Under the pieces are notes generated by a model. It was not told the DNA's origin. It saw only the letters and a list, made by a program, of their open reading frames with translations, and made no database searches. Both the position numbers and the translations under genes were made by a program. Positions 17,926 through 45,885 of a stretch of DNA of 64,000 nt are shown piece after piece. Numbering within the stretch: the stretch's first letter is position 1; each line of letters starts with the position of its first letter. The stretch comes from an uncultured Chloroflexia bacterium (GTDB lineage Bacteria > Chloroflexota > Anaerolineae > CG2-30-64-16), in the NCBI GenBank assembly GCA_963774265.1, contig CAVZDU010000002.1:544001-608000 (forward strand), given 5' to 3'.

Positions 17926-17931
17926 AGCTAC

Positions 17932-19353: not shown

Positions 19354-19487
19354 GTTAGCTCCTCCCTGAAGCTGATCCTTGAAGGACTCAGACTGGCGTA
19401 ACAAGCTTCGGATCTGCCGGAATGCGATGTCTTGGCAGGGGTTCCCTCCTCTCTCTTACCCGGGCGATAGGGCGTGCGGCCTAACCC

Positions 19488-23542: not shown

Positions 23543-23561
23543 CAGAATCTCCTTGCGTGAT

Positions 23562-24580: not shown

Positions 24581-24589
24581 AGCAACTCC

Positions 24590-25977: not shown

Positions 25978-25978
25978 T

Positions 25979-27141: not shown

Positions 27142-27177
27142 CTCCTTATATCGACGTTATTGCTGCGGCAGTAAGCG

Positions 27178-28531
27178 CTATAACCCGATGACACCCGGGT
27201 TCATGATGTTGTTCGGGTCGAGCATGGCCTTGATGGCCTTCTGGAGCCGCCAGTAGCCGGTGTTCCTGCATGTGCTTCTGCAGATAGGGTCCCCACTGCC
27301 GGCCCTTGGAGTAGGGCGCTCCGCCCAGTTCCAGCGCCCGATCCATCATCTCCTGCATGGCATTCCAGACCTTGGCACGCTCGGCCATGTCGTCCGGGTG
27401 GTGGAACATCAGGCTGACATGCTCGGAACCGTGCGGCTCCGGGAACATCTGCTGAACATAGACCTTGATGTCATGGCGGTCCATGATCCGCTTCATTTCG
27501 TAGGTTGCATCGACCAGCTTATCGAAGGGCAGGAAGTAGTTCACCGCACCTGCGATGCCCTCTTTGAACTCCTCGCCGGTCAGGAACCAGCGGTTGTTCC
27601 AGAACTTCTGCACCCCTTCGGTGCCCAGGCACTCCATGTCCGGGATGCCTGGCGATCAGGCCGCGGATCTTCTTGACCCGCATTTCCACGTCGTCCTCGT
27701 CCCCTTCGACGTTATAGTGGAAGATGATCAGCTCGCCCGGCTTGATGACGGGCACCGAGATGTAGCAGACCAGGTTGTTGATTGCCAGATCGCGGAACAA
27801 GGCTGACGGCCGAAGCCAGGTCCGCGGTCTTGTAGACTTCCAGGAAGAATTTCTCAGGGAAGGGGAAGATGCGCAGCGTACACTCGGTCATGATGCCGAA
27901 CGCGCCTTCAGCGCCGATGAACAGCCCCGTCAGGTCGGCCCCGAGCCCGTAACGGAAGAACACGTCGGAGTTGGATTGGCGGCCGAGCCGGTGCAGACGA
28001 TGTCACCGTTCGGCAGCACCATCTTGAGGCCCAGCGCCTGATCGCCGGAGCTGATGTACTTGATGTTGCCCCAACCGACGCCGGGCCGTGAGATGTGGGC
28101 GCCCGGCGTGCCGGCCATGGCGCCCGAAGGCGCAATGCCGATCTTCCAGCCGCGCTGCTCCAGCGTGTTCATCAGGCTGACGTAGGTGATGCCGGACTGG
28201 CAGGTTACGGTCCCATTGGTCTCATCGATCTCGAGGATCTCGTTCATGCGCAGCATCTCGATCGTGATGCCGCCGCCTGCCGGGGGTGTGGAGCCGGCTT
28301 CCTGGGCCGAGCCGCCCCCGCGTGGCACGATCGGCACCTTGTACTCGTTGGCGATCTTGACGATCTCAGACAACTTCTTCCGTGGTCTTCGGGCCGCACG
28401 ACCAGGTTCGGCATGCTCGGTGGCATGGTGCCGAAATCCCTGGAGTACGCCTTGAGCACAAACGGCTTGTCTGAGACATATTGCGGACCGACGACGTCGG
28501 CCAGGCGCTTGAGGATTGCCCCGTAATCCAT
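27178..28531 (-). CDS. FAD-linked oxidoreductase (GlcD / D-lactate dehydrogenase family), frameshifted
   Basis: VPRGGGS, RMNEILEIDE, GLKMVLPNGDIV, DLTGLFIGAEGAFGIMTE; C-terminal LDPNNIMNPG. Confidence 0.87.
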
Positions 28532-28563: not shown

Positions 28564-29333
28564 TCAGTCGCTGAGCCGCCTGGTGGAAAAGACGACTTCG
28601 TGCAGCCCTCGTACGACGCTTTCGGGATCGCTGGCTTGCCAGACGCGGCGGCCGAATGCCACACCCGCCGCGCCTGCGGCGAATCGCATCCCGCGCCACG
28701 TCCAGCGTGTTATCAGCGCCGCCCTCGCTCGGCCCGCCCGCCACGATGATGGGCACGCTGGTCGACGCGACGACCTGCTCGAATGCTGGCCAGAGTTGCC
28801 GCAGTAGTTCGTCTTGACGATGTCGGCGCCGAAGTTCCATGCCGATCCGCGCCGCGTGCGCGATCTGCTCCGGCGCGTAGAATTGATCCGGCGGCGGCAT
28901 CATTTCGGCCAGCACCGGCATGCCCAGCCCGCCGCACTGCTCGATCAGTTCGCCGAGCCACTGCATGAGGTAGGGCTCGCCACCTCGACCAAAGAAGATC
29001 GATACGGCCACCGCGTCAGCATCCAGGCGCAGCGCGGTGGTTGCTGTGACGGCAGGGATCTCCTGCCGGGCTTCAGCACTCAGGCCTGCGCTGACACTGA
29101 CCCGCAGAACAATCCCGACATCAAGTGGAATCAGATCCGACACCTGGCGAAGAAAACCCGGCGTGAGCAATAGGGCCGTGGCGCCTCCGGCGATGGCACT
29201 GGCGACGATCTGGCGTGGGCGATCGATCCCGGCAGACGGGTCCCAGCCAGGGACCATGATCCAGTGGAACCATGAGGCATCGCTTCTCCGGACCAGCCAG
29301 GAGTCTCCGCAATCGTCTTTGCTTTCCGGTCAT
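28564..29333 (-). CDS. Class I aldolase, DhnA/LsrF/ADH-synthase family, frameshifted
   Basis: MVPLDHG, DADAVAV, GMPVLAE, HAARIGMELGADIVKTNY (Schiff-base Lys), PIIVAGG. Confidence 0.85.
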
Positions 29334-29368
29334 GTGCCATCCTCCTCGAAGCGTGTATTGGGGTGTAA

Positions 29369-29493
29369 CCGCCGGACGTAACGTCCGGGCTACGGCAACG
29401 CCCCGTGAACGGGGCTGACGATGCGTTAGCCGGCTCGGTTAGCCCGCTTCAGCGGGCGCTGCTAGGTAGCCCGGCGACTTTAGCGCCGGGCGG
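29369..29493. repeat. Inverted pair of ~50-bp REP-like units (BIME-like)
   Basis: Both units read AGCCCnnTTCAnnGGGCG-nTGC-n(1-3)-GTAGCCCGG-loop-CCGG(G)CGG; one on each strand. Confidence 0.65.
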
Positions 29494-31011
29494 TCTGCCG
29501 TCCGCGGTCATCTCCGGCGGCGCAACCAGCTTCGCCGCAAACTCGCTGAAATGGCGATAGGTGACGTAGCCGGCGTCGTACGTCGACGCCGAGATCGGGC
29601 TGATGCCTGACCCAGTCGGGAGGCTCGAAGGTGCTCTCGAGCGCAGCAGCCATGTCCGCTCCGTCCAGTGCCTGCTGGTACAGCGCAAACAGGACGCGTG
29701 TGACGGTCTCTTCTTCGGTATAGATGGTCGCATCGCGGCCGCAGACATCGGCAATGATCTGCGTCAGGCCAGGGGTTTTGGTCCCCCCGCCCGCCAGCGC
29801 CAGCTCCTCGATGGGCAGGCCCATCTCGCCGTAGATATCGAGTAGATGGCGCAGGCTGTAGGCGATGCCCTCCATCGCTGCCCGCAGCATGTGCCGGCGA
29901 TCATGGGCCAGGCGCAAGCCATAGAACCCCGCGCGGATCTCATCCGACCAATAGGGGCTGCGTTCGCCGGCCAGGTAGGGAAGAAACACCAGTCCATCTG
30001 AGCCAGGCGCCACTTCGAGGGCCGTGTCGGGTCGCCTCCTCGAAGGTGAGCTCAGCCGACTGGCCCCGAAGAACCTGCTGCTAGCATCCAGACCAACGAT
30101 GCGCCCGTGGTCGAGGATACGCCGCCCGCCAGCCGATAGGGCGGCAGGAATGGGTAGACGTACAGGCGATCTCTGGGGATCGTCCGCCTGCTGCTCCGGC
30201 GCCAAGCGCCATGAAGATCATCGATGAACTGCCCAGCGAGCAGACGACACGCCCGGGGCGTGGCGGGGCTCCGCCGATCAGCGCCGCCACATCGCCCACA
30301 CCGTTGATGATGGCCGGGCCTGGGATTGAGGCCGAGTTCGCCGGCGACGTCGGGCCGCGGCAGTACCGACAACTGCGCATCGGCCGGCAGAATGGGCGGC
30401 AGAGACGCTCGGCGTCCAGACCGGTCAGCGCAAGCCGGTCCAACGCCCAGGTCTTGGTGCGACCAATCCAGCAACGCTGCTCCGCCACACTCGGTCAAAT
30501 CCGTGCCCACCAGCCCGGAAAGCCGGAAGCGCAGATAATCCTTTGGCCACAGGATGGTGCGCACACCTGCGCCAGAATTTCGGGACGATGACGGCTCAGC
30601 CAGAGCAGCTTGGGGAGGGTGTACGTGCTGTTGAGCTGATAGGGCGGCAGTCCCAGGCGCTTCTGCAGCTCCTCTGTCTCCCCGGCTGCTCTGCGATCGA
30701 GCCACAGAATCGTCGGCGGCACCACCCGCTGCGCGGCGTCGAGCAGCACGGCGGAATGCATCTGACCGGTGAATGCGACCGCATCGACCTGATCCAGGCC
30801 CAAGCCACCCTGCTGCAAGTTCTCGCGTCGCTTCCCAGAACGCGGTCCACCACGCCTCAGGGTCGCCCTCGGCCCACCCCGGCTGAGGCGTCGTGTACGA
30901 ATAGCGTCGCACTGCGACCTTGAGCACTTGCCCCGCGTGGTCGTACAGGACCGCCTTGAGCGAGGATGTGCCGACATCGGCCGCCAGCAAAGCAGGGGTG
31001 TGCGGGGCCAT
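29449..31011 (-). CDS. FGGY-family carbohydrate kinase (xylulokinase-like), frameshifted
   Basis: AADVGTSSLKA, FTGQMHS, ILWLDRR, YTLPKLLWL, PKDYLRFRL, FLPYLAGERSP, RAAMEGIAY, LAGGG. Confidence 0.88.
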
Positions 31012-32033
31012 CAGACAGCCTCGCCGCCGACCTCGACCATGACCTTCATGCCTTCCGCGATTCAGCACGAGCTCGAAGCCTTCATGCAGGCGCTCGAGCG
31101 GCAACAGGTGGGATATCAGCGGTTCCACCAACACCTGGCCCGACTCGATGTAGCGAAGCGCCTCGTGCATGTCCTCAGGCGTCGAGTCAGCCGATCCGGT
31201 CAGGATCAGCTCCTTGTAGTGGATCAGGTTGGGGTCGATGTTCAGCGGCGCAACGGGATACATGCCGGCGAAGATATTCAGCCGCCCGCCCGCGGCCAGA
31301 CACTCGGCCGCCTCGAGCACGAGCGGGGAGGACTCCCACGGCCACCACGGCTGCGTCGACGCCTGCACCGCCGGTGGCCGCCATGACTGCTTCCCGCAGG
31401 TTGGCTGCCTGGCTGTTGATCACCACATCCGCGCCCAGCTTGCTGGCCAGGCTCAGCCGATCGTCGATCAAATCGGCAACGATCACCCGCGCGCCATAGC
31501 GTCTGGCCACCTGCATGTGCATCACGCCGATCGGGCCGGCGCCGATCACCAGCTCGGTCTCGACCGGCGCCAGGTGCAGCAGTCTCTGACCGCGCACGAC
31601 GCAGGCCAGCGGTTCAGTGAACGCGGCGGCCCGGTAGGAGGTGGTGTCTTCGCGGATCGGGAAGATGTTGCGCTGCGGGAGGACCGCATACTCTTCATAG
31701 GCGCCGTTCGGAAAGCGGGGGTGCTGGCAGCGGTTCGAGCGGCCGGTGCGGCAGGGGTCACAGGCGCCGCATTTGACGATGAAATCCGCCATGACTCGCT
31801 GGCCCGGCTTGAGATGCTTGACCTCACTGCCCACTTCCACGATACGGCCAGCTGCCTCATGGCCCATCACTCGGGGCAGCGGAACGTTCTTCTTACCCGC
31901 ATAAACCCGCACGTCCCAGGGGCAGATGCCCACGTAGGCAATCTGCACCAGGACCTCATCCGGCCCGACAGCCGGGCCGGGGTATCTCGCGCTGCTCGAA
32001 CTGGCCAGGCGCCACCAGCCACATAGACCGCAT
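31011..32033 (-). CDS. Second Zn-dependent alcohol/polyol dehydrogenase, frameshifted
   Basis: VGICPWD, GHE, CGACDPCRTG..C, EPLAC, VIGAGPIG, NLIHYKEL. Confidence 0.9.
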
Positions 32034-32105: not shown

Positions 32106-32868
32106 TCATCGCCCAGGGAGCGATGTCCGCACTGTATATTTGTACCGATCCCCGCGGCTGACCATGCGGGTATACTCTACAGGTTCATCGTCATCCGAGT
32201 AAATGATGCTCTCCACAAGCAGCAGCGGTGAACCCGGCGACACCTCGAGCAACTGGCTCTCCCGCAGACTGCCCGCCACTGCCTGGATTGTCGCTTCCGA
32301 CCGGGCAAAGGTTACGCCTTGAAGTCGCAAGACACGCCACAGGGAGGCCTGACCCTGCAGCTGCGCAGGCGTCAACACGACATGGGCTGGGAGCCTGAGA
32401 TGGGAGGTGGATACAATCGTCGGCTCATCGTCGACCAGGCGGAGCCGCTCGACGATCCAGATCCACTCCCCCTCCTCCACCCGCAGTGCAGCAGCCACAT
32501 CGCCGATCGCAGGTTCCTGCCGCAAGGAGAGCAGGCGTGAGCCGGCCCGAAGTCCGATTGCCTCCAGCTCCTCAGAGAAGCTGCGGAGCTGTGAGAGCTG
32601 TCGCTGAATCTTGGGGCGAGCGACGAAAGTCCCTTTTCCCTGATGCGACACCAGGTAACCTTCGCGTACGAGGTCGTTGATCGCCCGCCGAACCGTGATA
32701 CGACTGACACCGTAGGTGTCACAGATCTCACGTTCGGTCGGAATCGGGTCACCCTTCTCCCAGTGGCCTTGCTCGAGCGTGCCCAGCAGCGCCTGGCGCA
32801 ACTGGTGATACAGCGGCAGGGGCGACGTCGCGGTCAACCGCGGCAGGATCCAGAACAGCTAGTCCCAT
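32106..32868 (-). CDS. GntR-family (HutC/UTRA) transcriptional regulator; frameshift near the start
   Basis: PLPLYHQL, IPTEREI..YGVSRITVRRAI, QGKGTFV; UTRA domain ending PVEYTRMVSRGDRY. Confidence 0.92.
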
Positions 32869-32959: not shown

Positions 32960-33003
32960 TAGGGAGTTTTTTCACCGATACCGGCCCCTCAAGACCGGAG
33001 GTA

Positions 33004-33051
33004 TTGACATGCAGTGGTTTGTGTGCTATACATGCGTTATGTTGTTATAAT
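33004..33051 (+). promoter_or_regulatory. sigma70-type promoter of the right arm plus candidate GntR operator
   Basis: TTGACA(33004-09)-N17-TATACA(33027-32) with extended TG, followed by GTTGTTATAAT (33041-51). Confidence 0.7.
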
Positions 33052-33104
33052 AAGTGATCGATCGGGTATCTCTCCTATCCTCCCGGCCTATGAGGTGCCA
33101 ACCT

Positions 33105-33975
33105 ATGGCAAGTTTGGACTACGTGCATGCTACGTCCGTTGCAGACGCGGTGGCGCTCCTGAATGGCCCTGGACTGCGGTGCCGCCCCATCGCCGGGGGC
33201 ACCGATCTGGTTGTGGCAATGCGCCAGCGCGGTCCCTGGTTCGATCGCCTGGTGGACATTACAGCGATCCCGGAATTGTGCGAGATCGAGGAAACCCCGG
33301 CGGAGATTCGCATCGGCGCGGCAGTGACATTTGGCCGCGCAGCTGCCAACCTCCTGCTCCGCACGGCCGCCCCGATGCTGGTCGAGGCGTGCCTGACTGT
33401 GGGCAGCCCACAGATCCGCAACACCGGCACGCTCGGCGGCAATGTGATCAACGCAGCACCCTGCGCGGACAGCCTGCCCCCGCTCGTTGCGCTGGATGCC
33501 GCAGCCGCACATCGCCGGCCGCGGACGGAGAGCGAGTTCTGCCGGTCTCCCAGCTGACATCCTCACCGCATCAGGCCATGCTCCGGCCCGGCGAATTGCT
33601 CACCCATTTCACGTTTGCCAAACTGCCCGCCTGGCACCCGTTCCACCTTCATTAAACTGGGCCGGCGCAACGCCCAGTCCATCTCCAGGCTCAGCATCGC
33701 CGCGGCCGGTCGCATCAACGACGCAGGCGTGATGGATTTCGCCCGGCTGGCGCCGGGTGCAGCGCTTCCTCATACGGAACGCATGCTGGAGGTGGAGGCG
33801 ATGCTGTTCGGGCGTCCTCCGGGCCGACCTGTTCGGAGCGGCTGGGGAGATGGCGTCCAACTTCATGCTCAGCATCACCGGCAGGCGCTGGTCGACGGAG
33901 TACAAAGAGATCGCCATCCGCGGTTTGGTCGAACAGGCATTGGCAGCCGTATTCGGCGACGCCAACCCCTCCTGA
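33105..33975 (+). CDS. Xanthine dehydrogenase family FAD-binding subunit, frameshifted
   Basis: PIAGGTDL, IRIGAAVT, VGSPQIRNTGTLGGN, APCADS, FIKLGRRNAQSIS. Confidence 0.9.
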
Positions 33976-34003
33976 TCCGTCCATCCAAAGGGAGTCTATT
34001 CGC

Positions 34004-34503
34004 ATGCTCATTGAGTTCACGCTCAACGGGAAACAGATCGCTGTTGAGGCGCCAGCGCACATCTCACTCTTGACGCTGCTTCGCGATGCACCTCGATCTG
34101 ACCGGCACCAAAGAGGGCTGCGAGCGTGGGAGAGTGCGGTGCATGTTCCGTCATTGTCGATGGCGAAATCGTCAATAGCTGCCTTATGCTGGCGCCGAAG
34201 GCTGCGGGCCGCTCCGTCCTGACCATCGAAGGCGTCAGCCCTGCCGACGGTTCGCTGAGCGACCTCCAACGCAACTTCGTCGACCACGGCGCGGTGCAAT
34301 GCGGCTTCTGCACGCCCGGCATGGTGCTCGCAGGTGAGGCGCTGCTTGCGCACTCCCCGCTGCCCACACGGGACGAGATCCGCACCGCCCTTTCCGGTAA
34401 TCTGTGCCGCTGCACGGGCTACCAACAGATCGTCGACGCCATCGAAGCAACGGCGCTCGAGCGCGCGGGTACGGCGGCTCCTGCCCCGGTTTACGGAGGT
34501 TGA
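34004..34503 (+). CDS. Xanthine dehydrogenase family 2Fe-2S subunit, frameshifted
   Basis: TGTKEGC..GECGACSV, NSCL, TIEG, QCGFCTPG, GNLCRCTGY. Confidence 0.92.
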
Positions 34504-34506
34504 GGC

Positions 34507-36844
34507 ATGACTGAACAACAGTACATCGGCAAGCCTGCTCGGCGGGTGGATGCGGCGGACAAGGTGACCGGTCGCGCCCGCTACGTTGCGGATTACCGCC
34601 TTCCGGGGATGCTGTATGCGCGCTGCCTTCGCAGCGAAATACCTCATGCAGCCATCGCCCACCTCGACACCGCACCGGCGCTGCAGGTGCCTGGCGTCCT
34701 CGCCGTCATTACCATTGCGGACTTTGCCAATGAAGGGCGCTTCGGTTTCCCGGTGAGCGACCAATACATGCTTGCCCGGGGGACGGTGCGTCACGTCGGC
34801 GAAGCGATCGCCGCGGTTGCTGCCGAGACGCCAGAGGCAGCCGCGGCCGGGTTTGGCCGCGATCGTCTGCGAGTTGGAGCCCCTTCCCGCGGTGTTCGAT
34901 CCCGAGGCTGCGCTTGCACCTGATGCACCGCAGATCGGTCCCGATCGTGCCGACGGCCGGCATCCCAACTTCCTGCACTCCGAGATCGTGCGCCAGGGCG
35001 ATCCTGTTCGCTGCTCTCGCCGACTGTGAACGTCACGCTGGACGAAACTTACTCTGTCGTGCAGCAGGAACATGCCTACCTGGAGACCGAAGGCGCGCTG
35101 GCGATCCCGACACCGGAGGGAGGCGTCGTCGTCTACGCCTCCAACCAGAGCCCTTTCATCAATCGCGGAAACCTGGCCAACGTCCTGGGACTGGCACAGG
35201 ATCGCGTGCGCGTGATCCAGCCCCCCGTGGGCGGCTCCTTTGGCGGCAAGGATGACCTCAACTACCAGGCCTCGGCGCAATGCGCCGCGTTGGCCCTCAA
35301 GACCGGCCGCCCGGTTCGGATGACCTTCTCACGCGAAGAGAGCATGATCGCCAGCTACAAACGCGATGCGATGCGCATGCACGTGCAGCTGGGGGCAACG
35401 CCGGACGGCGCTCTCAAAGCCTGCAAGTTCGACGGCTTGCTCGACTCCGGCGCCTATGCGTCGCAGAGCGTGTTCACTTCCTGGCGCGCGGCCATCCATG
35501 CGATGGGCGCCTACCGGTACGAGCACTGTCACGTCGACATCAACTGCGTCTACACCAACAACGGCTACGCCGGCGCATTTCGCGGATTCGGCAACACGGA
35601 GGTCTGTTTCGCAATCGAGCAGGCTATCGACGAGCTGGCGGATAGGCTGGGCCAGGACCCGATCGACTTTCGCCTGCGCAACTGCCTGCGCCTGGGTGAC
35701 GAGACCGCGTTTGGCCAGCGGCTGGATGAATCGGTGGGCCTGCCTGAGTGCCTGGAGGCGGTGCGCAAAGCCAGCGACTGGGATCGCAAACGCGCCGCTT
35801 ACGCGCACCAGGGGGCAGGTCCCCTCCGGCGCGGCATCGGCGTGGCCGCGCTCTTCCATGGCACCTCACTCGGTGCGGAAGGGGCTGACTATGCGGGAAG
35901 CACCATCACCGTCGAGGGCGACTATCTCATTGCCCTGACCTCGGGCCTGACCGATTTTGGCACCGGCTCACGCACCGTCTTCACGCTCATCGCCGCGGAG
36001 GAGCTTGGCGTCAGCCCCGATCGGATCAGGATGCTCCGGCCGGACACCGACACGGCCATCGAATCGGGTCCCACGGTCGCCAGCCGCTCGACCATGTTGG
36101 GCGGCAATGCCGCGCGGCTCGCCGCGCAGAACCTGCGCCAGACGCTCGACTATGCGGCGGCCAATCTCCTTCACTGCGAGGTCCACCAGCTCGTGCGAGC
36201 AGGCGAGGGCTACGTCGGGCCCAGTGAGGAGCCGTAAGCTGGGAGCGGTGGTCGACCATGCCCACGCGATCGGCCTGACGCCTTCCGCGCACGGTCGCTG
36301 GACTGCGCCCCACATCCACTGGGACAGCAAGACCGGGCGTGGCGTCGCCTACCTGGCCTATCACTTCGGCGCACAGGTCGCTGAGGTCGAAGTGGACATG
36401 CGCACCGGCAAGACCGATGTCGTCGGCTTCTGGGCCGCGCACGATCTCGGAACGACGATCTTCCCGCCAAGGCGCGGTCGGCCAGGTCTACGGCGGCGTG
36501 GCGCAGGGCCTGGGCTACGCGCTCATGGAGGAGGCGCGACTACGTGGACGGCTACCTGCAGGCGACCAACTTCGACACCTACCTGATCCCCACGGCCAGG
36601 GACGTGCCCGACATCACCTGCATCCTGCTGGAGATGCCGTATTCGCACGGGCCCTTCGGCGCAAAGAACATCGCGGAGCCTGCCCTGGTGCCGGTTGCAC
36701 CCGGCCATCTGCAACGCCATCGCACATGCCACCGGCCGGCGGGTGCGCGATTTGCCAGCCAACCTGGAACGCGTGCTGCTGGGCCACAGCCTCGGGCGCG
36801 GCGATGACGGCCGGTCGTGCAAGTTAGGACTGAAAATCGGTTGA
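34507..36844 (+). CDS. Xanthine dehydrogenase family molybdopterin-binding subunit, frameshifted
   Basis: DKVTGRARY, QEHAYLETE, VGGSFGGK, GAFRGFG, TVASRST, GQVYGGVAQGLGYAL, HGPFGAKNIAEP. Confidence 0.9.
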
Positions 36845-36882: not shown

Positions 36883-37571
36883 ATGGATAAGCAGCAACTG
36901 CTGGCGCAATCTGTCACGAGAGCCTTCTGGAAACTGATCCGGAGGCAGCCGCGTTGGCAGCCCAGGCAGCCGTCGATGGTGGCGTCGATGCCATGGAGGC
37001 CATTCAGGTCGCCTCCGCGGCGATCGCCAGAGGTTGGTGACCTGTTCGAGAGCGGCGACCTCTACCTGCCCAGCCTGATGCTCGCGGGCGAGGCGATGAA
37101 GCGAAGCATGAGCATCCTGTCACGCTACCTCAGCGTGGAGCAGGCCAGCCAGAAAAAGGGCAAGGTCGTGATCGGTGCAGTGTCCGGCGACATCCACGAC
37201 ATCGGCAAGAACCTGGTGGCGACCATGCTTTCAGTGCACGGCTACGAGGTCGTCGACGTGGGTGTCAATGTCCCACCGATGGAGATCATCGACACCGCGC
37301 AGCGAGAACATGCGCGCTTCATTGCGCTATCTTCGCTGATGACGACCTCGATGCCCTACCAACGCGACGTGCTGGAACTCCTGACGCGAGATGGGCGTTC
37401 GAGACCGCTTCTACGTCGATCGTCGGCGGCGGCCCGGTCACAGCCGAATACGCCAGCCGGATCGGCGCCGACGGCTGGGGGGTGAGCGCGGTGTCCGCGG
37501 TGAAAGTGTGCGACCGCCTGTTGCAGTCCAACGAACGTCCTCCCGTCAAGTCCACCTTCCTTCAGGAATAG
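36883..37571 (+). CDS. Corrinoid methyl carrier protein, MtmC-like, frameshifted
   Basis: AAGGAG RBS; LYLPSLMLAGEAM, GDIHDIGKNLV, LSSLMTTS, IVGGGPV, IGADGWG. Confidence 0.9.
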
Positions 37572-37581
37572 GAGCATAACC

Positions 37582-38970
37582 ATGACACTCAATCGTGATC
37601 GGCTGATGGACGTGCTTGACAAGGCGCACAAAGGGCCCATCGTCAAGCAGTTCGACTGGGACACGCGCACGATTCCCGGCGCGATTGCCGACAAACTCAA
37701 GAAGTACGGCCTGCAGAAGACCTGCGATCCGGCCAATCCGATCAACCAGAACCTGGAGCTGGCGGATCGCTTCTTCGCGGCCGCCCTGGAAGTGGCGACC
37801 GAAGTCGGCATGCTGTGCACCGATACGCAGCGCGCGATCCGCTACTCGCGGGAGGAGCTGATCGCGGGCCTCGAGGCCGCGCCGGCCGCCTTCACGCTCG
37901 GTGAAGGCAAGGAAATCGCCCATTTCCAGCACCGCAGCATCTCCGATCCGGTGGCGCCCATCTGGGTGTCGCCCCTGAGCATTGCCGTGAGCGAGGATGT
38001 CTTCGAACCGCTGGTGATCGGCATCGCCAACGTGCCGGAAGTCGACTGCCTGGAGGGACCCTCCTTCGAGACCATTTGGGGCGCCCCCCTGCGCGCCGGC
38101 TCGCCTTACGAATTGCTGGCAGGCAAGATGCAGGCCCAACGCTTCTACAGCGCCATCTCCAAGGCGGGCCGCGATGGCATCGGCCTGTATGCGGTCGGCA
38201 CCTCGCCGACGCATTACGGCGTGCTGGGCGGGTACGGCGTGCCTGGCGGCTACAAGCCCGAACGCGACATCGTGCTGGTGCTCTCGCCCGTGGAGATCAA
38301 GACATCTTACGAGAACCTGATGAAGCTCGCGCATGCCTACAACTGCGGCGGCCAGACCTACGGCGGCTCGTGGTCGATGATCGGCGGCTACGCGGGTGGG
38401 CCTGAGGGTGCGGCGCTATCCTGCATCGCCTGCACCATCATGTTGTACAATGTCTACCAATGCGTCAACGGCGCCAGCTTCCCGTACGATCTGAAGACCA
38501 TGGGCAACTGCGGCCGCAATGCGTTGTGGGCCCTGGGCGTGGTGTTCCAGGCCCTGAGCCGGAACACGCACATCTGCGCCAATTCCGTGCTCAACCAGAC
38601 CGCCGGCCCGGTGACCGAGTGCCTGCTCTACGAGTCTGCGGTCGGCATGATGACCCTCAGCGTCTGCGGCACGTCCTCCTGCACCGGCCCCCGGACGGCG
38701 GGCGGCAAGTACACCGATTACATCACCCCGCTCGAGGTGAAGTTCGCGGGCGAGGTCTTCAAGAAGTCCGCAGGGATGGGCCTCTCCGAGGCGAACGAGA
38801 TCGCCAACCGCCTGCTCCCGAAGTACGAGCACGAGCTGGGCCACCCGCCCAAGGGGCAGAGCTTCCAACAGTGTTACGACCTGAAGACGCTGCAGCCCTC
38901 GGATGAATGGCGCAAGGTCTATGATACGGTCAAGAACGATGTCATCGCGGCGGGCATGCCGCTGAGCTGA
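37582..38970 (+). CDS. Monomethylamine:corrinoid methyltransferase (MtmB) family protein, non-pyrrolysine
   Basis: Intact 462 aa ORF; LCTDTQRAIRYS, SEDVF, SPYELLA, AGRDGIGL, GGYAGGPEG, AGPVTECLLYE, PPKGQSFQQCYDLKTL follow the remembered Methanosarcina MtmB sequence end to end. Confidence 0.88.
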   Translation: MTLNRDRLMDVLDKAHKGPIVKQFDWDTRTIPGAIADKLKKYGLQKTCDPANPINQNLELADRFFAAALEVATEVGMLCTDTQRAIRYSREELIAGLEAAPAAFTLGEGKEIAHFQHRSISDPVAPIWVSPLSIAVSEDVFEPLVIGIANVPEVDCLEGPSFETIWGAPLRAGSPYELLAGKMQAQRFYSAISKAGRDGIGLYAVGTSPTHYGVLGGYGVPGGYKPERDIVLVLSPVEIKTSYENLMKLAHAYNCGGQTYGGSWSMIGGYAGGPEGAALSCIACTIMLYNVYQCVNGASFPYDLKTMGNCGRNALWALGVVFQALSRNTHICANSVLNQTAGPVTECLLYESAVGMMTLSVCGTSSCTGPRTAGGKYTDYITPLEVKFAGEVFKKSAGMGLSEANEIANRLLPKYEHELGHPPKGQSFQQCYDLKTLQPSDEWRKVYDTVKNDVIAAGMPLS

Positions 38971-39059: not shown

Positions 39060-40194
39060 ATGGCAAGCCTGAGCACGCGACTTTTCGATGTGTCGATGAC
39101 GTCCCCGTTCATCCTGGCATCAGGACCGCTATCCTATGATGCGACCGGGTTATGGAAGGCCTACCGCGCAGGTGCAGGTGGCGTCGTCACCAAGACCTTG
39201 CGCCTCTCGGCCGCGGTCAACCCCACGCCCCACATGGTCGTCCCGCGCACTTCCAACCTGCGCGCCACGCTGTTCAACTCGGAGAAGTGGGCCGACCTGA
39301 CCTGGCAGCAGTGGGTTGAGATCGAGCTGCCCCGGATGGCGGACCACCCGGGCCTGCTGATTGCCAGCATCGGTCACACGCCCCCCGAAGGTGTGATTGC
39401 GGGGCCGGTGGCCGGAACCGGGGTGGTTGACGCCATCGAGTGCGTCGCGTACACCAGGGAAACTATTGTGGACCTGATCCGCGCCGTACGCGCGCGCACG
39501 AAACTGCCGATCCTCGCCAAGCTCACGTTCAACTGGGGGGATGAATTGTACCCGGCGGCGGAAGCCGCGCTGAGAGCGGGCGCAGACGGCTTCACAGCCA
39601 TCGATTCGATCGGGCCAACGCTGCAGATCGATGTGGAGACCGGCCAACCGACGGTCGGAGGCGCCGGCAGCCAGGCCTGGATGTCCGGAGCCGCTATACG
39701 GCCCGTCGCCCAGGCAGTTGTTGCCGAGCTGGCTCGCCGGCATCCCGGCGTCCCCATCGTGGGAACAGGTGGCGTCATCCAGGCCGAAGATGCCATCGAA
39801 ATGACCATGTGCGGCGCAGCAGCCATGGGCGTGTGCACCGCGCCGTTGCTGCGCGGCCTGGAGTGGTTTGCCCGCACGCATGAAAAACTCAATCTCTGGC
39901 TGGATGAGCGGGGCTACTCGTCGCTGGATGCCGTGCGCGGCAAGGCGCTGGCCAACTTGCAGGCGGAAGAGGACACGACGCGGCTCGTGTTTGGGTTCGA
40001 GCCGCTGAAATGCACCAAGTGCGACCTGTGCGTTGTGCTGTGTCCGTATGACGCGCGGCGAGATGGAAGGCGAGAAGCCCAGAAGTCCTGAGCTCAAACA
40101 GATCCTTCATGAAGCGCGTTGTCGCGATTGCGGCCTGTGCGTAGAGGTGTGTAAGCCTGGCGCGCTCACCTACGCGAACTGGCCGCGGCCCTAA
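39060..40194 (+). CDS. Dihydroorotate/dihydropyrimidine dehydrogenase (PreA)-like FMN protein with C-terminal 2x[4Fe-4S], frameshifted
   Basis: PFILASGP, GGVVTKT, LPILAKLT, MSGAAIRP, IVGTGGV; CTKCDLCVVLCP and CRDCGLCVEVCK. Confidence 0.8.
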
Positions 40195-40207: not shown

Positions 40208-42095
40208 ATGGCCAAGACTGCAAACGTAGATCTGACGACGGGCCGCGTCACGGTGACGGAGACCGCGCCCGGGCTGCTGCGAGATTACCTGGGGGGGCGG
40301 GGATTAGGAGCGCGGCTGCTCTATGACCTCGTCGGCCCGGAGGTCGATCCGCTGGGCCCGGACAACATGCTGATCTTCACCGCAGGCCTGCTGGCCGGCT
40401 CCCCGTGGCCCACCTCGGCCCGGATGCATGTCACCTTCAAGTCGCCGCTCACCGGCACATATGGCTACGCGAATACGGGCGGACAGATCGTGGCACAGCT
40501 GCGACATGCCGGGTACGACGCACTGCTGGTGACGGGCCGCGCGGCGGAGCCGTCCATCCTGCGCGTGACGGACGATGACATCGCGATCGTGCCTGCGCCC
40601 GAGCTGTGGGGCCTCCAGACCGGCGCAGTGCACGACGCGCTGCTGGGTCCCCGGGGCGACAAAAGCAAGGGCTGCGTCGCGTGCATCGGCCCTGCGGGCG
40701 AGAACCTGGTGCGCATTGCCGCGATCATCAACGATCGGGGCCGCGCGGCGGCACGCGGCGGCCCGGGCGCGGTGATGGGCAGCAAGAATCTGAAGGCGCT
40801 CCATATCGTGGCCCAGCGGCGTCCACCCACGCCGCCCGAATTCCGAGACGCCGCCCGGACCGCGATGGACAAGGTGCGCGCAGACCCACATCTTGACGGC
40901 CTGCGGCGCTGGGGCACGCTGGTGCTGATGGACGGCAAGAATGTGCGCGGCGATCAGCCGGCCAAGAACCATCAGTTCGCCCAGGTGCCCTTCATCAAAT
41001 CGGTGAACGCGGCCGCATTCGACAAATACGTCGAAGCGCATCGCGGCTGCTACGGGTGTCCGATCAAGTGCAGCCGCGATTCCGAGGTCGACGAGGGCGC
41101 GTATGCCGTGGAGGTGGAGGGTCCGGAGTACGAGAGCACCAACGCCCTGGGCCCGATGAATTGGGTCAGCGACCCGGAAGCGATCCTGTATGCCAACCGC
41201 CTGTGCAACGAGTACGGCCTGGACACCATCTCAACCGGCGTGACGATCGCATTTGCCCTCGAGCTGCACGAGAAGGGATTGCTGGACGACGAGCCGGATC
41301 TGCCGCTGGCATGGGGCAGCCCGGCAACGCTGCACGGCCTGATCGAGCGCATCGCCTTGCGTCGCGGGATCGGCGACGTGCTGGCCGAGGGCACCCGCCG
41401 CGCAGCGGAGCGCATCGGCCGCGGCGCCGAACGTTACGCCATGCAGGTCAAGGGGCTCGAGCTGCCCCGCCAGGAGCCGCGCTTCGCCAAGGGCTTTGGC
41501 CTGGGCCATGCCACGTCCAATCGGGGCGCAGATCACCTCTACGGCCTGCCGGCCATCGACCTGGCGGGCGCCTGGGACGTGGCCAACCGCGTCTTCCCGG
41601 CCGAGATCGTGCCGGAGCTGATGGACCCGACGAACGAGAAATACAAGCCCGACATGGTGGTTTTCGGGGAGCACTTCTGCGCGGTGACCGATTCATTGGG
41701 CATCTGCAAGTTCAGCACCATCGAGGAATACGCCCTGTTTCCCGAGGACCTGGCCCCCGGCGTTGCTGCGTTATGGGGCCGGCCCGTCACCGGCGCGGAT
41801 CTGCTGCCCGTGGGCGAGCGCATCGTGAACCTGGAGCGGCTGTACAACGTGCGCCTGGGGCTGTCTCGCAAGGACGACCGCTTGCCGGCGCGCTTCACCG
41901 ACCGAGCCCGCGCCGCTCTACGAATACGAAGAGGATCCCCAGACCGGTGAGATGGTCCGCTCCGCCGAGCCGATCCGGTACGGGCTGCTGGTTGACTTCG
42001 AAGGCATGCTGGATCGCTACTACGATCTGCGCGGATGGACGCGCGACGGCCTGCCGACCGCTGAAACGCTGGCACGCGTTGGGCTCACACCCTGA
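40208..42095 (+). CDS. Aldehyde:ferredoxin oxidoreductase (tungsten AOR family); frameshift near 41905
   Basis: YLGGRGLG, KSPLTG, IGPAGENLV, RAAARGGPGAVMGSKNLKA, CYGCPIKC, GPEYE, GLDTISTG, SNRGADH, DSLGICKF, YYDLRGW. Confidence 0.92.
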
Positions 42096-42146
42096 ACCGT
42101 CACACCGGTCAGTGAGAACACATTCGCAACAGGAGTCTACTGAGGC

Positions 42147-43142
42147 ATGAACACGAAGCTTTTCCAGAAGGATTTCATCACCACCCCCGACTGGACCGTG
42201 GAGGACCTGAACACCATGCTCGACCTGGCGTTCCGGCTCAAGGGCGACTTCGCCACCGGCGTGCTGCACGATCACATCCTGCGCGCCAAGACGCTGTACA
42301 TGCTCTTCTTCGAGGAGTCGACCCGCACGCGCAACTCGTTCGAGACGGGCATGACGCAGCTCGGCGGCCACGCGATCTGGCTGACGCCCAAGGCGACCCA
42401 GATCGGCCACGGCGAAAACGCCAAGGACACCGGCATGGTGCTGAGCAGCTACGGCACACGGCATCGCCATCCGCGACTGCCGCACCGGGATCGGCAACAA
42501 GTACCTCTACGAGATGGCGCAGTACGCCGATGCGCCGATCATCAACATGCAGGACGACGTCGATCACCCCTGCCAGGCCATGGCCGACCTGATGACCCTG
42601 ATGGAGCTGTTCGGCCGCGACCTGCGCGGGCGCAAGTTCGTCATCTCCTGGACCTACGCGCCGAAGTACGTGCGCCCGTTGAGCGTGCCGCAGTCGCTGG
42701 TCTGGCTGATGCCGCGCTTCGGCATGGACGTGACGCTGGCCTATCCCGAAGGGCTATCACATGATGCCGCGACGTGATGGAGAAGGCCCGCCAGTTCGCG
42801 GACGAGGCCGGCACGAAGCTCACCGAGACCAACGATATGGACGAGGCATTCAGGGACGCCGACTTCCTCTATCCCAAGTCCTGGGGACCGATCATGGTCA
42901 CCGAGGACGAGGCCGAGGTGGAGGCGATGGCGGCGCAGAACACCGGCTGGCGCGTGACGCAGGAGAAGATGGCGCTGGCCAAGAAGCATGCGGTCTACAT
43001 GCACTGCATGCCCATCGACCGCGGCCACGAGGCCGACGGCGACGTGATCGACGGCCCGCAGTCGGTCATCTACAAGCAGGCCGAGAACCGGCTGCACATC
43101 CAGAAGGCGCTGATGGCGCTGATGATGAGCGGCCGCGCGTGA
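42147..43142 (+). CDS. YgeW-like (knotted) carbamoyltransferase, frameshifted
   Basis: STRTRNSF, QIGHGENAKDT, DHPCQAMAD, SWTYAPKYVRPLSVPQ..RFGMDVTLAYPEG, YPKSWG, MHCMP. Confidence 0.82.
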
Positions 43143-43171: not shown

Positions 43172-44390
43172 ATGCAACCCGAACTCACAGATCACATCGC
43201 CGCGCTGGCCCGGCAGATGACCGGACCCCGCGAGCGCTTCCTGGCCGACCTGATCCGCATCCGCTCGTACACCGGCCAGGAAGGTCCCGCGGTCGAGCGC
43301 ACCCTGGAGGAGCTGCGGGCCATCGGCTGCGACGAGGTATGGATGGACTCGGCGGGCAATGCCCTGGGCCGGATCGGGCGGGGACCGCGGGTGATCCTCT
43401 ACGATGCGCACCTGGACACCAATGAGGTGGCCGATGCCCGCGAGTGGCCGCACCCACCCCTGGAGCCGGTCGTCGAAGGCGATGTGATGTGGGGCCTGGG
43501 CGCCTCGGACTGCAAAGGAGGGGTCGCGGCGATCGTCTACGGCGCCGCGATCCTGGCCACGCTGGGGCGAGACCTGCCCGCGGTGCGCGCCCTGCTGCAG
43601 GAGGTCTCCGTCGTGGTGATGGGCGCGACCCTGGAGGAGGACGCGGAGGGCTTCGCGCTGCGGTCGCTGGTCGAGCGCGATGGGCTGCGGCCCGAGGTCG
43701 TGCTGCTGGCCGAGGCCACCGATCTGACGCTGCGCCGCGGGCAGCGAGGGCGCTGCGAGGTTCGCGTGCGAACGGCAGGCCGCGCGGCCCACGCCAGCCA
43801 GCCCCACCTGGGCGAGAGCGCGATTCTGAAGATGCTCCCGGTGGTCTCGGCGCTGGAGGCCGATGAATGCCGCCTTGCCGGTCGATCCCATCTTCGGCCG
43901 CGGGAGCCAGGTCGTCTCGATGATCGAGGGCCCGCACACCCCTAATTCCGTGCCCTCCTGGTGCGAAGTGGTCGTCGACCGCCGGCTGACGCCCGGCGAG
44001 ACCGCAGAGACGGTCCTGGCGGGCGTGGCCGCGGCAGTCGAGCCCCTGGGGGCAACCGCCCGCATCCCGGAACAACCGGTGTCGACGCACACGGGCCTGC
44101 GGCTGGATGGCCCGGCGTTCTATCCCGGCTGGCTGCTCGCAGAAGATCATCCGCTGCTGGCTGCGGGCCAGGCGACCTGCCGGACGTTGTGGGGGCAGGC
44201 GCCGCGCGTCGACGTCTGGCGCTTTTCCACCGATGGTGCGTATTCCGCCGGGGCAGCCGGCATTCCCACCCTCGGATTCGGACCGGAGGAGGAGCAGTAC
44301 GTACACGCGGCCAACGACCAGGTAAACCTGACAAAGCTGGCCAAAGCCGCGCAGTTTTACGCGCTCTTCCCCCTGATCTTCCAGCGATGA
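43172..44390 (+). CDS. YgeY-like M20 metallopeptidase/amidohydrolase; frameshift near 43860
   Basis: LYDAHLDT, WGLGASDCKGG, TLEEDAEG, RRGQRGR, AAHASQP, WRFSTDG, LGFGPEEEQYVHAAND. Confidence 0.85.
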
Positions 44391-44442
44391 TCTACGACCC
44401 ATGCTCGAGTGCGGGAGTGCTGATCCATAGGACGGTGTTGCC

Positions 44443-45780
44443 ATGATACTCCTCCCTGAGTACCTGATCGACGTGCCAGGCGAGCCGCCGAAGCACCGCT
44501 GGGGCGTGCGAGTGATGGGCGCCCAGGTGGCCGCGGTCGCATCTCATGCGGACCTGCGCCAGCTTTACCCTGAAGACGAGGTGGTGGACGCAGGGGGCCT
44601 GACACTCTCCCCCGGCTTTGTCGATGCGCATACGCACCTATACGGCGTGCTGGCCCACGGCATCCCCCTGCATAAAGCGCCGTCCGGGTTCTGGCCGTTC
44701 CTGGAGGATTTCTGGTGGCCGCTGGTGGAAGATCGGCTCGACCACGAGATGATCTGCGCTGCCACCGACCGCAACCTGGCGACGATGTTGCGCGGGGGCG
44801 TCACCAGTTTCTACGACGTCACCGAGGCGCCGAACGCCCTGCCCGGCTGCCTGGCGACCCAGGCCAACGTCGTGCGCGCCCGCGGCATCCGCGGCATCCT
44901 CTCCTTCGAGGCGACCGAACGGGTCAGCCGGGATAACGGCCAGCTTGGGCTACACGAAAACCTGGACTTCATCCGCACATGCCAGGAAGAGGCCCGGTCA
45001 GAGCAGAACGGGACACCGGCGGGCCTCCTTTCAGGCTTCATGTGCTACCACACGACCTTCACCTGCTCGACCGGGTTTATCCGCCAGGCGTTTGACCTGG
45101 CCGCGGCGCACGGCGCCACGGTCCATATGCATGTCTCCGAGGGTGCGTATGAGCCCGAACATGCCCTCACCCATTTCGGAATGCGCACGTTCGAGTTCTA
45201 CGACCGCCTCGGCGTCGCGGGGCCGGCCATGCAGGCTTCGCAATGCGTCCAGATCTCCCCTGCCGAGATTGAGATCATCGCGCGGCGCGGGGTGCGAGTG
45301 TCCCACATGCCGTTATCGAATTGCGAGGTGGGCGGCGGCGTCGCGCCCGTGCCGGACCTGCTTGCTGCGGGCGTGCCCGTGGGCCTGGGCTCCGATGGCT
45401 ACATCACCGACATGTTCGAGGTCATGCGCGGCGCGTTCCTGATCCACAAGGCTTATCGCCAGGACCCGCGCGTGATGCCGGCCAACGTCGTGTGGCGCCT
45501 GGCGACCGAGGGCGGCGCGCAAGTGCTCGGGCTGGACCGGGTGGGCCGGCTCCTTCCGGGCTGGCAGGCCGACCTGCAGCTGATCGACTCGGCCCTGCCC
45601 ACACCCGTGGAGCCCTGGAACCTCTACGGCCAGCTCCTGCTGTATCGGAGCCGCCGCGATGTACACGATGTGATGGTGGCCGGCCAGTGGCGCGTGCGCA
45701 ACGGCGCCGTGCTGGGGGTGGACGAGGAGGCGCTGGACGCGAGGGTGCACGAGTCCGCGCGGCGGATCTGGCAGGTCTGA
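44443..45780 (+). CDS. SsnA-like amidohydrolase (purine/aminohydrolase family)
   Basis: PGFVDAHTHLY, HMHVSEG, SHMPLSNCEVGGG, GLGSDG, GRLLPGWQADL. Confidence 0.85.
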   Translation: MILLPEYLIDVPGEPPKHRWGVRVMGAQVAAVASHADLRQLYPEDEVVDAGGLTLSPGFVDAHTHLYGVLAHGIPLHKAPSGFWPFLEDFWWPLVEDRLDHEMICAATDRNLATMLRGGVTSFYDVTEAPNALPGCLATQANVVRARGIRGILSFEATERVSRDNGQLGLHENLDFIRTCQEEARSEQNGTPAGLLSGFMCYHTTFTCSTGFIRQAFDLAAAHGATVHMHVSEGAYEPEHALTHFGMRTFEFYDRLGVAGPAMQASQCVQISPAEIEIIARRGVRVSHMPLSNCEVGGGVAPVPDLLAAGVPVGLGSDGYITDMFEVMRGAFLIHKAYRQDPRVMPANVVWRLATEGGAQVLGLDRVGRLLPGWQADLQLIDSALPTPVEPWNLYGQLLLYRSRRDVHDVMVAGQWRVRNGAVLGVDEEALDARVHESARRIWQV

Positions 45781-45849
45781 GACGACGGAGGCCTGGCCGC
45801 GGCACGAGTGCCCGTAAGGGTCTCAACACACTCGTCAGGCGCGCTATTG

Positions 45850-45885
45850 GAGCCCACGGATCGAGATCCGTGGGCTTCTGTTCTT
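45850..45885 (+). terminator. Hairpin terminator closing the right arm of the island
   Basis: AGCCCACGGATC-GA-GATCCGTGGGCT followed by TCTGTTCTT, about 70 bp after the last stop. Confidence 0.6.

Follow-up and report, generated by a model that had tools for sequence, protein, structure and literature searches.

By its sequence, P0001, the protein encoded at 37582-38970 (+ strand) of the 64,000-nucleotide stretch of DNA analysed here (the window), is a pyrrolysine-free MtmB homologue with Tyr at the pyrrolysine (Pyl) site and a predicted cognate corrinoid gene. Its host is an uncultured soil Chloroflexi bacterium, and its relatives are of Chloroflexi/Caldilineales type. P0001 is very probably the substrate-specific methyltransferase (MT1) of a three-component cobalamin/tetrahydrofolate demethylation system. 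Its gene context points, more tentatively, to an N-methylated nitrogen heterocycle, nucleobase-like, as the substrate class.

A first-pass annotation had described an intact ORF of 462 aa without internal TAG, and translation bore this out, with zero internal stops. P0001 scored 258.4 bits against the Pfam MtmB profile PF05369 (cut-off 25), covering profile positions 4-448 of 450, and in a phmmer search of the PDB its residues 9-453 paired with residues 10-450 of Methanosarcina barkeri MtmB (1L2Q, E 1.6e-54); the alignment to the MtmB family that had been proposed is thus full-length. The segment agrdgiglYavgts of P0001 lies opposite agrpgmgvXgpets of 1L2Q, in which X is Pyl202; hence, Tyr203 occupies the Pyl202 column, as the annotation had placed it. 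The Tyr203 codon is TAT (38188-38190) and not the UAG of MtmB proper. It should be noted that this codon is known from the assembly, the best public run sharing 0.07 of the stretch and four runs being without cover at 38132-38205.

The residue at the Pyl site is Tyr in 21/21 loci of the clade of P0001 (the Tyr clade). Among 64 sequences at least 60% identical to P0001 (query counted), 58 carry Tyr and 6 carry Phe; the residue is aromatic throughout these relatives, and the hydroxyl appears to be dispensable. The first-pass annotation had considered that pyl genes might lie elsewhere in the genome. A search of the 84%-complete genome that covered PylS and PylD gave a best C-terminal match to PylS of 21.1 bits (cut-off 178) and no match to PylD. 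More widely, 884 clusters at 50% identity match P0001. One 256-aa representative (P0174) starts exactly one residue past the Pyl-site column and resembled the downstream portion of a relative split by UAG; a search did not recover its own DNA, and four relatives (~50% identical; Hadarchaeota, Hecatella) have the whole chain, show Gly or Ser in that column and contain zero TAG.

The gene directly upstream of mtmB (36883-37573, + strand; ATG at 36883, end at about 37573) encodes a corrinoid (B12-binding) protein, identified by profile match and by comparison with orthologues. It matches PF02310 and PF02607, covering the B12-binding and cap domains, and has the His-ligand motif GDIHDIGKN (DxHxxG-type), so that an adjacent corrinoid protein is present; GGAG is found 8 nt ahead of the mtmB ATG. 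MT1 and corrinoid protein form a textbook pairing, and the two genes adjoin in 21/21 Tyr-clade loci. The earlier statement that P0001 has its own corrinoid protein therefore holds for gene position and conservation, but the gene as assembled has four frameshift sites. Compared with four orthologues, these are insertions of +2, +1, +1 and +1 bases, and the reading frame runs 2>1>2>3>1 along the assembly. Splits of this kind affect almost all genes of the island and could suggest a locus in decay, with pseudogenes in place of the corrinoid gene and of most neighbours and an MtmB-like ORF that survives without function. We regard this as very improbable. A housekeeping fumarase of the same genome is also broken, in three frames; the orthologues in short-read MAGs (L006, L012) are intact; in an independent soil run, short-read contigs (95-97% alike; depth 2) do not have the extra bases at 37027 and 37424; and the MtmB ORF remains intact, sharing 91-93% identity with its orthologues. 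The four frameshift sites look like assembly errors, given that housekeeping genes are disrupted in a similar manner. Pseudogenisation specific to the island was rejected on the fumarase and on the absence of two of the extra bases from the short-read contigs.

The corrinoid gene and mtmB lie within a single co-directional unit on the + strand. Upstream of the two genes lies an Xdh-family molybdenum hydroxylase (32998-36838), whose FAD/2Fe-2S part (32998-34500) and Mo-binding part (34579-36838) are split by frameshifts. Downstream of mtmB follow a PreA-like Fe-S flavoprotein of the DHODH/dihydropyrimidine-dehydrogenase type (39060-40188; 157.6 bits, PreA cut-off 335), an aldehyde:ferredoxin oxidoreductase of the AOR family (40208-42119; one frameshift near the 3' end), an OTC-family carbamoyltransferase (42147-43139; frameshifted), a YgeY-like M20 hydrolase (43180-44440; 203 bits against a cut-off of 321, shortened by a frameshift) and an intact SsnA-like aminohydrolase of the ATZ/TRZ family (44443-45780; 238 bits, SsnA cut-off 444). 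A terminator-like hairpin (45849-45878; 13 pairs, 8 of them G-C) closes the unit. PreA, YgeW, YgeY and SsnA were scored against the curated NCBIfam cut-offs. The orthologue of the OTC-family gene in locus L007 gave 256 bits for OTC, 248 for AOTC and 220 for YgeW, each below its cut-off (453 for YgeW). Thus, of the xdh, PreA/AOR and ygeW neighbours first proposed, the families and the co-directional arrangement are upheld, but the proteins named PreA, ygeW and ssnA score under the curated cut-offs of those families, and the window holds no E. coli-type ygeW-ssnA-xdh cluster with YgeW, SsnA and YgeY above them.

The remainder of the island is encoded on the - strand. A GntR/UTRA regulator (32106-32837) diverges from xdh, with a promoter-like site at 32959-32931. 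Beyond it lie a Zn-ADH (31060-31959), an FGGY kinase (29530-30821) and a DeoC/DhnA-type class I aldolase (28567-29333), each frameshifted (28567-31959 in all), and then, within 23193-28531, a GlcD-like FAD oxidase (27181-28531), a CCG/4Fe-4S protein, an ATZ/TRZ aminohydrolase (24590-25922) whose nearest relative is the MTA/SAH deaminase 4F0R, a Zn-ADH and an FTR-like protein. The segment 20536-22626 encodes a second, intact corrinoid protein (21979-22626) and an MttB-like second MT1 (20536-21948; frameshifted, no Pyl). A CUT1-type ABC importer (MalK-like ATPase, two permeases, SBP_bac_1 binding protein) and an aldo-keto reductase occupy 14677-20462; the binding protein resembles binders of maltose/trehalose and sulfoquinovosyl-glycerol, not of nucleosides. 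Finally, a Pterin_bind-domain methyltransferase of the methyl-corrinoid:tetrahydrofolate type (MT2) is encoded at 13777-14664.

We then counted neighbours in 29 loci, as raw counts without a background control. At least one N-heterocycle gene (ATZ/TRZ or SsnA-like aminohydrolase, Xdh, OTC-like, PreA-like, dihydropyrimidinase or BMP-type binding protein) was found in 16/21 Tyr-clade loci, and the five that have none have short or one-sided flanks. An xdh gene precedes the corrinoid/mtmB pair in 5/21 loci, all five among the six loci that are at least 80% identical; it is a recent addition to the locus. OTC-like genes occur in 3/21 loci and a PreA-like gene in 1/21. After the corrinoid gene, the commonest partners form a sugar-type catabolic module: FGGY kinase in 14/21, DeoC-like aldolase in 13/21 and GlcD-like oxidase in 12/21. 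An adenosine-type ATZ/TRZ aminohydrolase, an MttB-like second methyltransferase and SBP_bac_1 are each found in 10/21. The neighbourhood survey that the first-pass annotation had called for thus recovered N-heterocycle genes at most loci, but the most constant partners are of the sugar type. In L005 and L007, a BMP binding protein is encoded beside MtmB, its nearest relatives being AtzT (6PI5) and BMP lipoproteins, and L010 and L011 contain additional PfkB kinase, SIS-domain and GH4 genes.

The neighbour sets persist among loci of 67-92% identity and are found again in sister clades from other phyla. For example, the archaeal locus L021 encodes a true PreA (470 bits), a dihydropyrimidinase (476 bits), a carbamate kinase and a carbamoyltransferase; the deltaproteobacterial L121 has an allantoinase-like gene, OTC, carbamate kinase and MT2; and L122 has PreA, BMP, AOR and MT2. 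Moreover, a second MtmB locus of the same genome (contig 10) contains two MtmB-like genes, 30-31% identical to P0001, together with a BMP ABC importer, an Xdh-family hydroxylase (34% identical to that of the window) and RamA. The N-heterocycle or ureido context originally suggested is partly supported, by these loci and by the 16/21 count, although xdh itself is confined to 5/21. The genome has about 13 MttB-family and 3 MtmB-family genes and five RACo/RamA (RACo_C_ter) matches, these five all outside the window, so that MT2 and activases are both encoded. Because the genome is so rich in methylotrophy genes, adjacency to N-heterocycle genes is perhaps less specific.

From sequence and gene context, the activity of P0001, its substrate and the direction of methyl flow can be predicted as follows. 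The MT1 would move a methyl group from the N-methylated substrate, which may be a methylated base (purine or pyrimidine), the corresponding nucleoside or a related cyclic ureide, to the Co(I) form of the corrinoid protein encoded just upstream. The pterin-binding MT2 would hand the methyl on to tetrahydrofolate, and RamA-type activases encoded elsewhere in the genome would maintain the reduced state of the cofactor. At the former Pyl site, the aromatic residue (Tyr, or Phe in some relatives) would position the substrate without forming a covalent adduct. The demethylated skeleton may then pass to the Mo hydroxylase, the aminohydrolases, the PreA-like reductase, the carbamoyltransferase and AOR, and the sugar part, if any, to the FGGY kinase/class I aldolase/GlcD module.

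A different substrate is suggested by the sole demonstrated function of a non-Pyl MtmB, the demethylation of tetramethylammonium and choline (PMC13044021): P0001 could act on a small quaternary or simple methylated amine in the manner of MtqB, its catabolic neighbours being unrelated passengers of a methylotrophy island. The abundance of MttB- and MtmB-family genes is typical of a generalist methylated-amine user. However, P0001 is just 21-31% identical to each of 27 MtmB-family ORFs of Methanosarcinaceae, the family with reported MtqB homologues (81 genomes sampled; ORFs from 20 non-Pyl-gene regions plus five Pyl-type loci), and therefore lies outside any clade found there, which speaks against a place in the MtqB clade; chance is also a hard explanation for neighbour sets kept over 67-92% identity and in sister clades. 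We consider this reading unlikely. The sugar-type partners, which lead the counts after the corrinoid gene, fit instead an N-methylated amino-sugar, glycoside or polyol-amine imported by the CUT1 system, whose skeleton would be degraded through AKR/ADH, FGGY kinase, class I aldolase, AOR and GlcD-type oxidation. The resemblance of the binding protein to disaccharide and glycosyl-glycerol binders and the extra genes of L010 and L011 agree with this. Nevertheless, such a substrate leaves the ATZ/TRZ, Xdh, PreA, dihydropyrimidinase, carbamoyltransferase and BMP-importer genes unexplained, whereas a nucleoside, having both base and sugar, would account for both gene sets; we rate the amino-sugar or glycoside reading as rather unlikely.

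Since alkylamino-triazine hydrolases are among the ATZ/TRZ relatives, the aminohydrolases might also free methylamine from N-methylamino heterocycles (e.g., N6-methyladenine), to be used by the MtmB-like enzyme without pyrrolysine, and slight monomethylamine demethylation is indeed reported for MtqB (PMC13044021). This route is improbable: MtmB is reported to require pyrrolysine for the activation of methylamine (PMC9842639), the imine adduct is impossible with Tyr or Phe, and Phe replaces Tyr in some close relatives. The substrate of P0001 is almost certainly not methylamine.

Returning to the N-heterocycle assignment, we can extend it into a more speculative proposal, possible but doubtful at present, in which the Tyr clade removes the methyl group in a route, so far undescribed and independent of oxygen, that processes N-methylated nucleobases or nucleosides. 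Substrates might include 7-methylguanine, 1-methyladenine, N6-methyladenine, methylxanthines and methylated pyrimidines. In place of pyrrolysine, Tyr or Phe (one base change from UAG, the ancestral codon) would stack against the ring. The methyl would pass via B12 to tetrahydrofolate, and the ring left behind would either receive a hydroxyl group from the neighbouring Mo enzyme or undergo reduction and opening to give carbamoyl phosphate. Such a route could explain how methylated nucleic-acid bases or methylxanthines serve anaerobes as sources of carbon, nitrogen and methyl groups. In the literature we found no description of corrinoid-dependent demethylation of methylxanthines or nucleobases and no enzyme established for their anaerobic N-demethylation; a 2026 preprint on anaerobic caffeine demethylation, as far as its accessible text goes, names no enzyme (10.64898/2026.01.06.697959). 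Pyrrolysine-free MtmB homologues are a large family that is already known and mostly unstudied, and P0001 is not new as such. MtqB appears to be the one member with a known substrate, and the lead given by the conserved gene context of one clade could point the way to a second class of substrates. Moreover, since a single base change turns TAG into TAT or TAC, P0001 bears on the gain and loss of pyrrolysine sites.

Compared with known systems, P0001 resembles M. barkeri MtmB (1L2Q/1NTH) in family, length and end-to-end alignment, in the conserved AGRxG strand before the active-site residue and in the adjacent cognate corrinoid gene; identity to the Pyl-type genes of Methanosarcinaceae is about 30%. 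It differs in having Tyr in place of UAG-encoded pyrrolysine, with no PylS or PylD found in its genome, in its bacterial host and in an MT2 that is pterin-binding (tetrahydrofolate) rather than MtbA/CoM. The anaerobic purine and reductive pyrimidine clusters (xdh, ssnA, ygeW, ygeY, preTA, dihydropyrimidinase, carbamate kinase) comprise the same families that flank MtmB here and in the sister clades, whereas the SsnA-, YgeW- and PreA-like proteins of the window score below the curated cut-offs and the window has no PreT or carbamate kinase. To our knowledge, no corrinoid methyltransferase is part of such clusters as described. With the non-Pyl MttB superfamily of anaerobic bacteria (MtgB for glycine betaine, MtcB for carnitine and others), which works with MtqC-type corrinoid proteins and a pterin-binding MT2, P0001 shares a Pyl-free MT1, a corrinoid protein, a tetrahydrofolate-linked MT2 and RamA, and the island itself contains an MttB-like gene; however, the known substrates of that superfamily are quaternary amines, and MttB and MtmB are described as unrelated in sequence (PMC9842639). 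A functional precedent is MtqB/MtqC of Methanococcoides methylutens Q3c, with MtqB deposited as ACT9XH_RS04775 and characterised in 2026, in which conserved Met/Cys and aromatic residues are reported around the ligand (PMC13044021); the first-pass annotation, which knew of no established substrate for a non-Pyl MtmB, is outdated by that report. Among the 27 Methanosarcinaceae ORFs, the non-Pyl paralogues have Met, Phe, Val, Ile, Thr, Gln, Ser or Leu in the Pyl column and in no case Tyr, and the genomic context of P0001 is different from that of MtqB. Both are nonetheless Pyl-free MtmB-family members with their own corrinoid protein, and the reported activity of MtqB therefore indicates that Pyl-free MtmB proteins can be active demethylases of substrates other than methylamine.

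The MtmB-like protein P0001 is encoded by 462 codons without a stop (37582-38970, + strand) in a window with a G+C content of ~63%. It matches the Pfam MtmB profile (PF05369) with 258.4 bits over positions 4-448 of 450, and its residues 9-453 align with MtmB of Methanosarcina barkeri, whose structure is solved (1L2Q, E 1.6e-54). The alignment sets 'AGRDGIGL-Y-AVGTS' of P0001 on 'AGRPGMGV-X-GPETS' of 1L2Q, where X is pyrrolysine (Pyl) 202, described as being located in the TIM barrel, on a beta-strand (PMC9842639). Given that the Tyr codon is TAT at 38188-38190 in the assembled sequence, the first-pass annotation, which had reported an intact 462-aa ORF with Tyr at the Pyl site, was exact to the base. 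Reads showing TAG at 38188, together with pyl genes elsewhere in the genome, had been named as evidence that would count against it. No public sequencing run contains the stretch, and four runs aligned to it leave the codon uncovered. In this genome of 5.5 Mb on 10 contigs (84% complete), the best PylS match reached 21 bits against a cut-off of 178, and PylD gave no match.

The Pyl column was surveyed in the query and 120 homologues from a search of 5.8 billion proteins. Among the 64 sequences at least 60% identical, 58 have Tyr and 6 Phe, while Asp, His, Thr, Glu, Gly and other residues occur in remoter homologues. At the DNA level (one genome per species), Tyr is encoded by TAT or TAC in 21 of 21 loci (L005-L020, L022 and L117-L120), all labelled Chloroflexi, Anaerolineae or Caldilineales MAGs except L020, labelled Thermotogae. 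Tyr at this column is thus a conserved trait of the clade.

The + strand unit containing P0001 begins with an Xdh-family Mo hydroxylase (32998-36838), followed by a corrinoid protein, the MtmB-like protein, a PreA-like flavoprotein, AOR, an OTC-family carbamoyltransferase, a YgeY-like hydrolase and, as eighth and last gene, an SsnA-like aminohydrolase; a 13-pair terminator hairpin ends it (45849-45878, +). The placement of mtmB between xdh and the PreA-like, AOR and carbamoyltransferase genes had been described correctly at first pass. Divergently, the - strand encodes a GntR/UTRA regulator, a Zn-ADH, an FGGY kinase, a DhnA-type class I aldolase, a GlcD-like oxidase with a CCG iron-sulfur partner, an ATZ/TRZ aminohydrolase, a second ADH, an FTR-like protein, a second, intact corrinoid protein with an MttB-like methyltransferase, an aldo-keto reductase, a CUT1 ABC importer and a pterin-binding methyltransferase (MT2; 13777-14664, -). 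The island therefore holds two substrate-specific methyltransferases (MT1), two corrinoid proteins and one MT2. RamA-type activases are encoded elsewhere in the genome, which gives five RACo/RamA matches.

The FTR-like gene (23193-23542, -) resembles formylmethanofuran:tetrahydromethanopterin formyltransferase (FTR/FhcD) below the cut-off; it stands beside a tetrahydrofolate-type MT2 and is a conserved cluster member in Anaerolineae (L013, L014, L016, L017, L019, L120). A fused HPPK-GTP cyclohydrolase I gene for folate/pterin synthesis (11531-12646, -) lies ~1.1 kb from MT2. The 1883-aa product of 58085-63736 (-), with nine LVIVD repeats and beta-helix/NosD-like and Big_6 domains, is probably a large surface protein.

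The claim that P0001 has its own corrinoid protein stands in that the gene lies directly upstream (ATG at 36883, +) and encodes B12-binding and cap domains with the ligand motif 'GDIHDIGKN', but its frame changes at four sites as assembled, with +2, +1, +1 and +1 extra bases relative to four orthologues. We read these breaks as long-read type assembly errors, not decay. Similar splits affect nearly all genes in the 32 kb around it, and the extra bases at 37027 and 37424 are absent from short-read contigs 95-97% alike (independent soil run, low depth). Frequent single-base insertions split most genes of 13.8-45.8 kb as well as the housekeeping fumarase gene (10140-11486, three frames), and in so indel-rich an assembly both the gene calls and the estimated completeness will be too low. 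Since several other genes above 1 kb are unbroken (ABC ATPase, permeases, SsnA-like gene), the intact MtmB ORF is not odd.

Neighbours were counted by tblastn over the 21 Tyr-clade loci (up to 10 kb per side, several shorter; counts, not enrichment statistics). The corrinoid protein was found in all 21, FGGY kinase in 14, DeoC-like aldolase in 13, GlcD-like oxidase and GntR regulator in 12 each, and ATZ/TRZ aminohydrolase, MttB-like methyltransferase and SBP_bac_1 binding protein in 10 each. Lower counts were obtained for AOR and MT2 (4 each), OTC-like carbamoyltransferase (3), and SsnA-like aminohydrolase, dihydropyrimidinase and BMP binding protein (2 each). The purine-degradation-like setting proposed at first pass holds in part: at least one N-heterocycle gene occurs in 16 of 21 loci, but Xdh in only 5, all among six loci at least 80% identical, and a PreA-like gene in 1. 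The five loci without such a gene (L008, L015, L018, L020, L022) have mostly short or one-sided flanks. The ATZ/TRZ protein is closest to the MTA/SAH deaminase 4F0R; the BMP protein, which in L005 and L007 directly follows the MtmB gene, has its nearest matches in AtzT and BMP lipoproteins.

Moreover, in other phyla, sister-clade MtmB-like genes (43-52% identity) adjoin ring-opening ureide enzymes. The archaeal locus L021 encodes a true PreA (470 bits), a GltD/PreT-like protein, dihydropyrimidinase (476 bits), carbamate kinase and a carbamoyltransferase; the deltaproteobacterial L121 an allantoinase-like protein, OTC, carbamate kinase and MT2; and L122 PreA, BMP, AOR and MT2. In Hadarchaeota loci, MtmB-like genes stand in tandem, accompanied by BMP and ATZ/TRZ genes. 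Two contigs of one Hadarchaeota MAG (L123, L124) each hold three MtmB-like genes with a BMP-type binding protein, a corrinoid protein and an ATZ/TRZ aminohydrolase, a strong family expansion in a non-methanogen archaeon.

A second corrinoid methyltransferase island lies on contig 10 of the same genome (44.9-59.7 kb; L126:3612-19706; L001, L002, L004), in the order MFS transporter, MtmB-like protein (Asn at the Pyl column, one frameshift), two intact corrinoid proteins, MtmB-like protein (Gly), BMP ABC importer, Xdh-family hydroxylase (FAD subunit and 1023-aa FeS-Mo fusion) and RamA. Its MtmB-like proteins are 30-31% identical to P0001 and its hydroxylase 34% to that of the window; the pairing of corrinoid demethylase with Mo hydroxylase thus occurs twice, with anciently diverged parts. 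The genome has 25 MttB-family matches (~13 genes after merging frameshift pieces), and the organism seems to be a specialist in corrinoid-dependent demethylation. In anoxic sediment given 13C-caffeine, some N-methyl carbon reportedly reached methane and one Anaerolineae genus was enriched 8.7-fold; the bioRxiv account credits Methanosarcina and, as far as its accessible text goes, names no enzyme (10.64898/2026.01.06.697959). This evidence is no more than circumstantial.

Family membership and the presence of all system parts make a generic MT1 role well supported: P0001 would move a methyl group from its substrate to the adjoining corrinoid protein, from which MT2 would hand it to tetrahydrofolate. 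The residue at the former Pyl site is always aromatic, Phe being accepted as well as Tyr, which is more consistent with stacking or cation-pi contact than with covalent chemistry. For the substrate class, we tentatively favour an N-methylated N-heterocycle. An N-methylated base or nucleoside would account for both neighbour sets, the base passing to aminohydrolase, Mo hydroxylase, PreA-like reductase, ring opening and carbamoyl transfer, and the sugar to kinase, aldolase, AOR and GlcD. Several points speak against it: each of the genes of purine or pyrimidine type is infrequent and their products fall below curated family cut-offs, the CUT1 binding protein resembles a glycoside binder, and the organism has its ~13 MttB-family genes.

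A simple amine, as for the Pyl-free homologue MtqB, is unlikely, and an N-methyl glycoside, which would suit the CUT1 binder and the sugar-type neighbours, slightly more so. Free methylamine, the substrate of Pyl-type MtmB, is improbable with Tyr in place of Pyl. A dead locus, at which the broken corrinoid gene might hint, is scarcely credible given the intact, conserved ORF.

Scanned in full with HMMER, 1.84 billion representatives yielded 884 clusters at E <=0.001 and 184 at E <=1e-30, most of them full-length and hence without UAG. The residue at the Pyl column varies greatly across a 137-sequence tree (Leu, Gly, Ile, Val, Tyr, Thr, others), in which the Tyr clade is tightly grouped next to clades having Asp, Glu, His or Phe. 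One 256-aa representative, P0174, shares 42% identity with P0001 over the latter's C-terminal half; its start, 'MIGTSPTEYG...', lies exactly one residue past the Pyl column and resembles a gene-caller product downstream of an in-frame stop. A search for its DNA found none; P0174 could be a relative from this branch that carries a UAG.

The first-pass premise that non-Pyl MtmB has no established substrate is outdated, since MtqB is reported to demethylate tetramethylammonium and choline, the first function in the non-Pyl family (Kashyap et al., PMC13044021). Family matches occur in 70 of 81 sampled Methanosarcinaceae genomes, comprising Pyl-type genes that carry a single TAG and several TAG-free classes. 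Full-length non-Pyl paralogues at L084-L091, whose Pyl column holds Met (Phe in one; 'AGREGLALMGPGTPT'), share 30-34% identity with Pyl-type MtmB, and MtqB may be one of these classes; some of these paralogues (e.g., G063, G076 and G045) directly adjoin a Pyl-type mtmB gene. Against 27 family ORFs from Methanosarcinaceae, P0001 is 21-31% identical (Pyl-type 27-30%, non-Pyl 21-31%), and therefore belongs to a distant clade no matter which of the classes contains MtqB. P0001 adds one more member to a known family that is largely uncharacterised, and its genomic context offers a useful but unproven lead.
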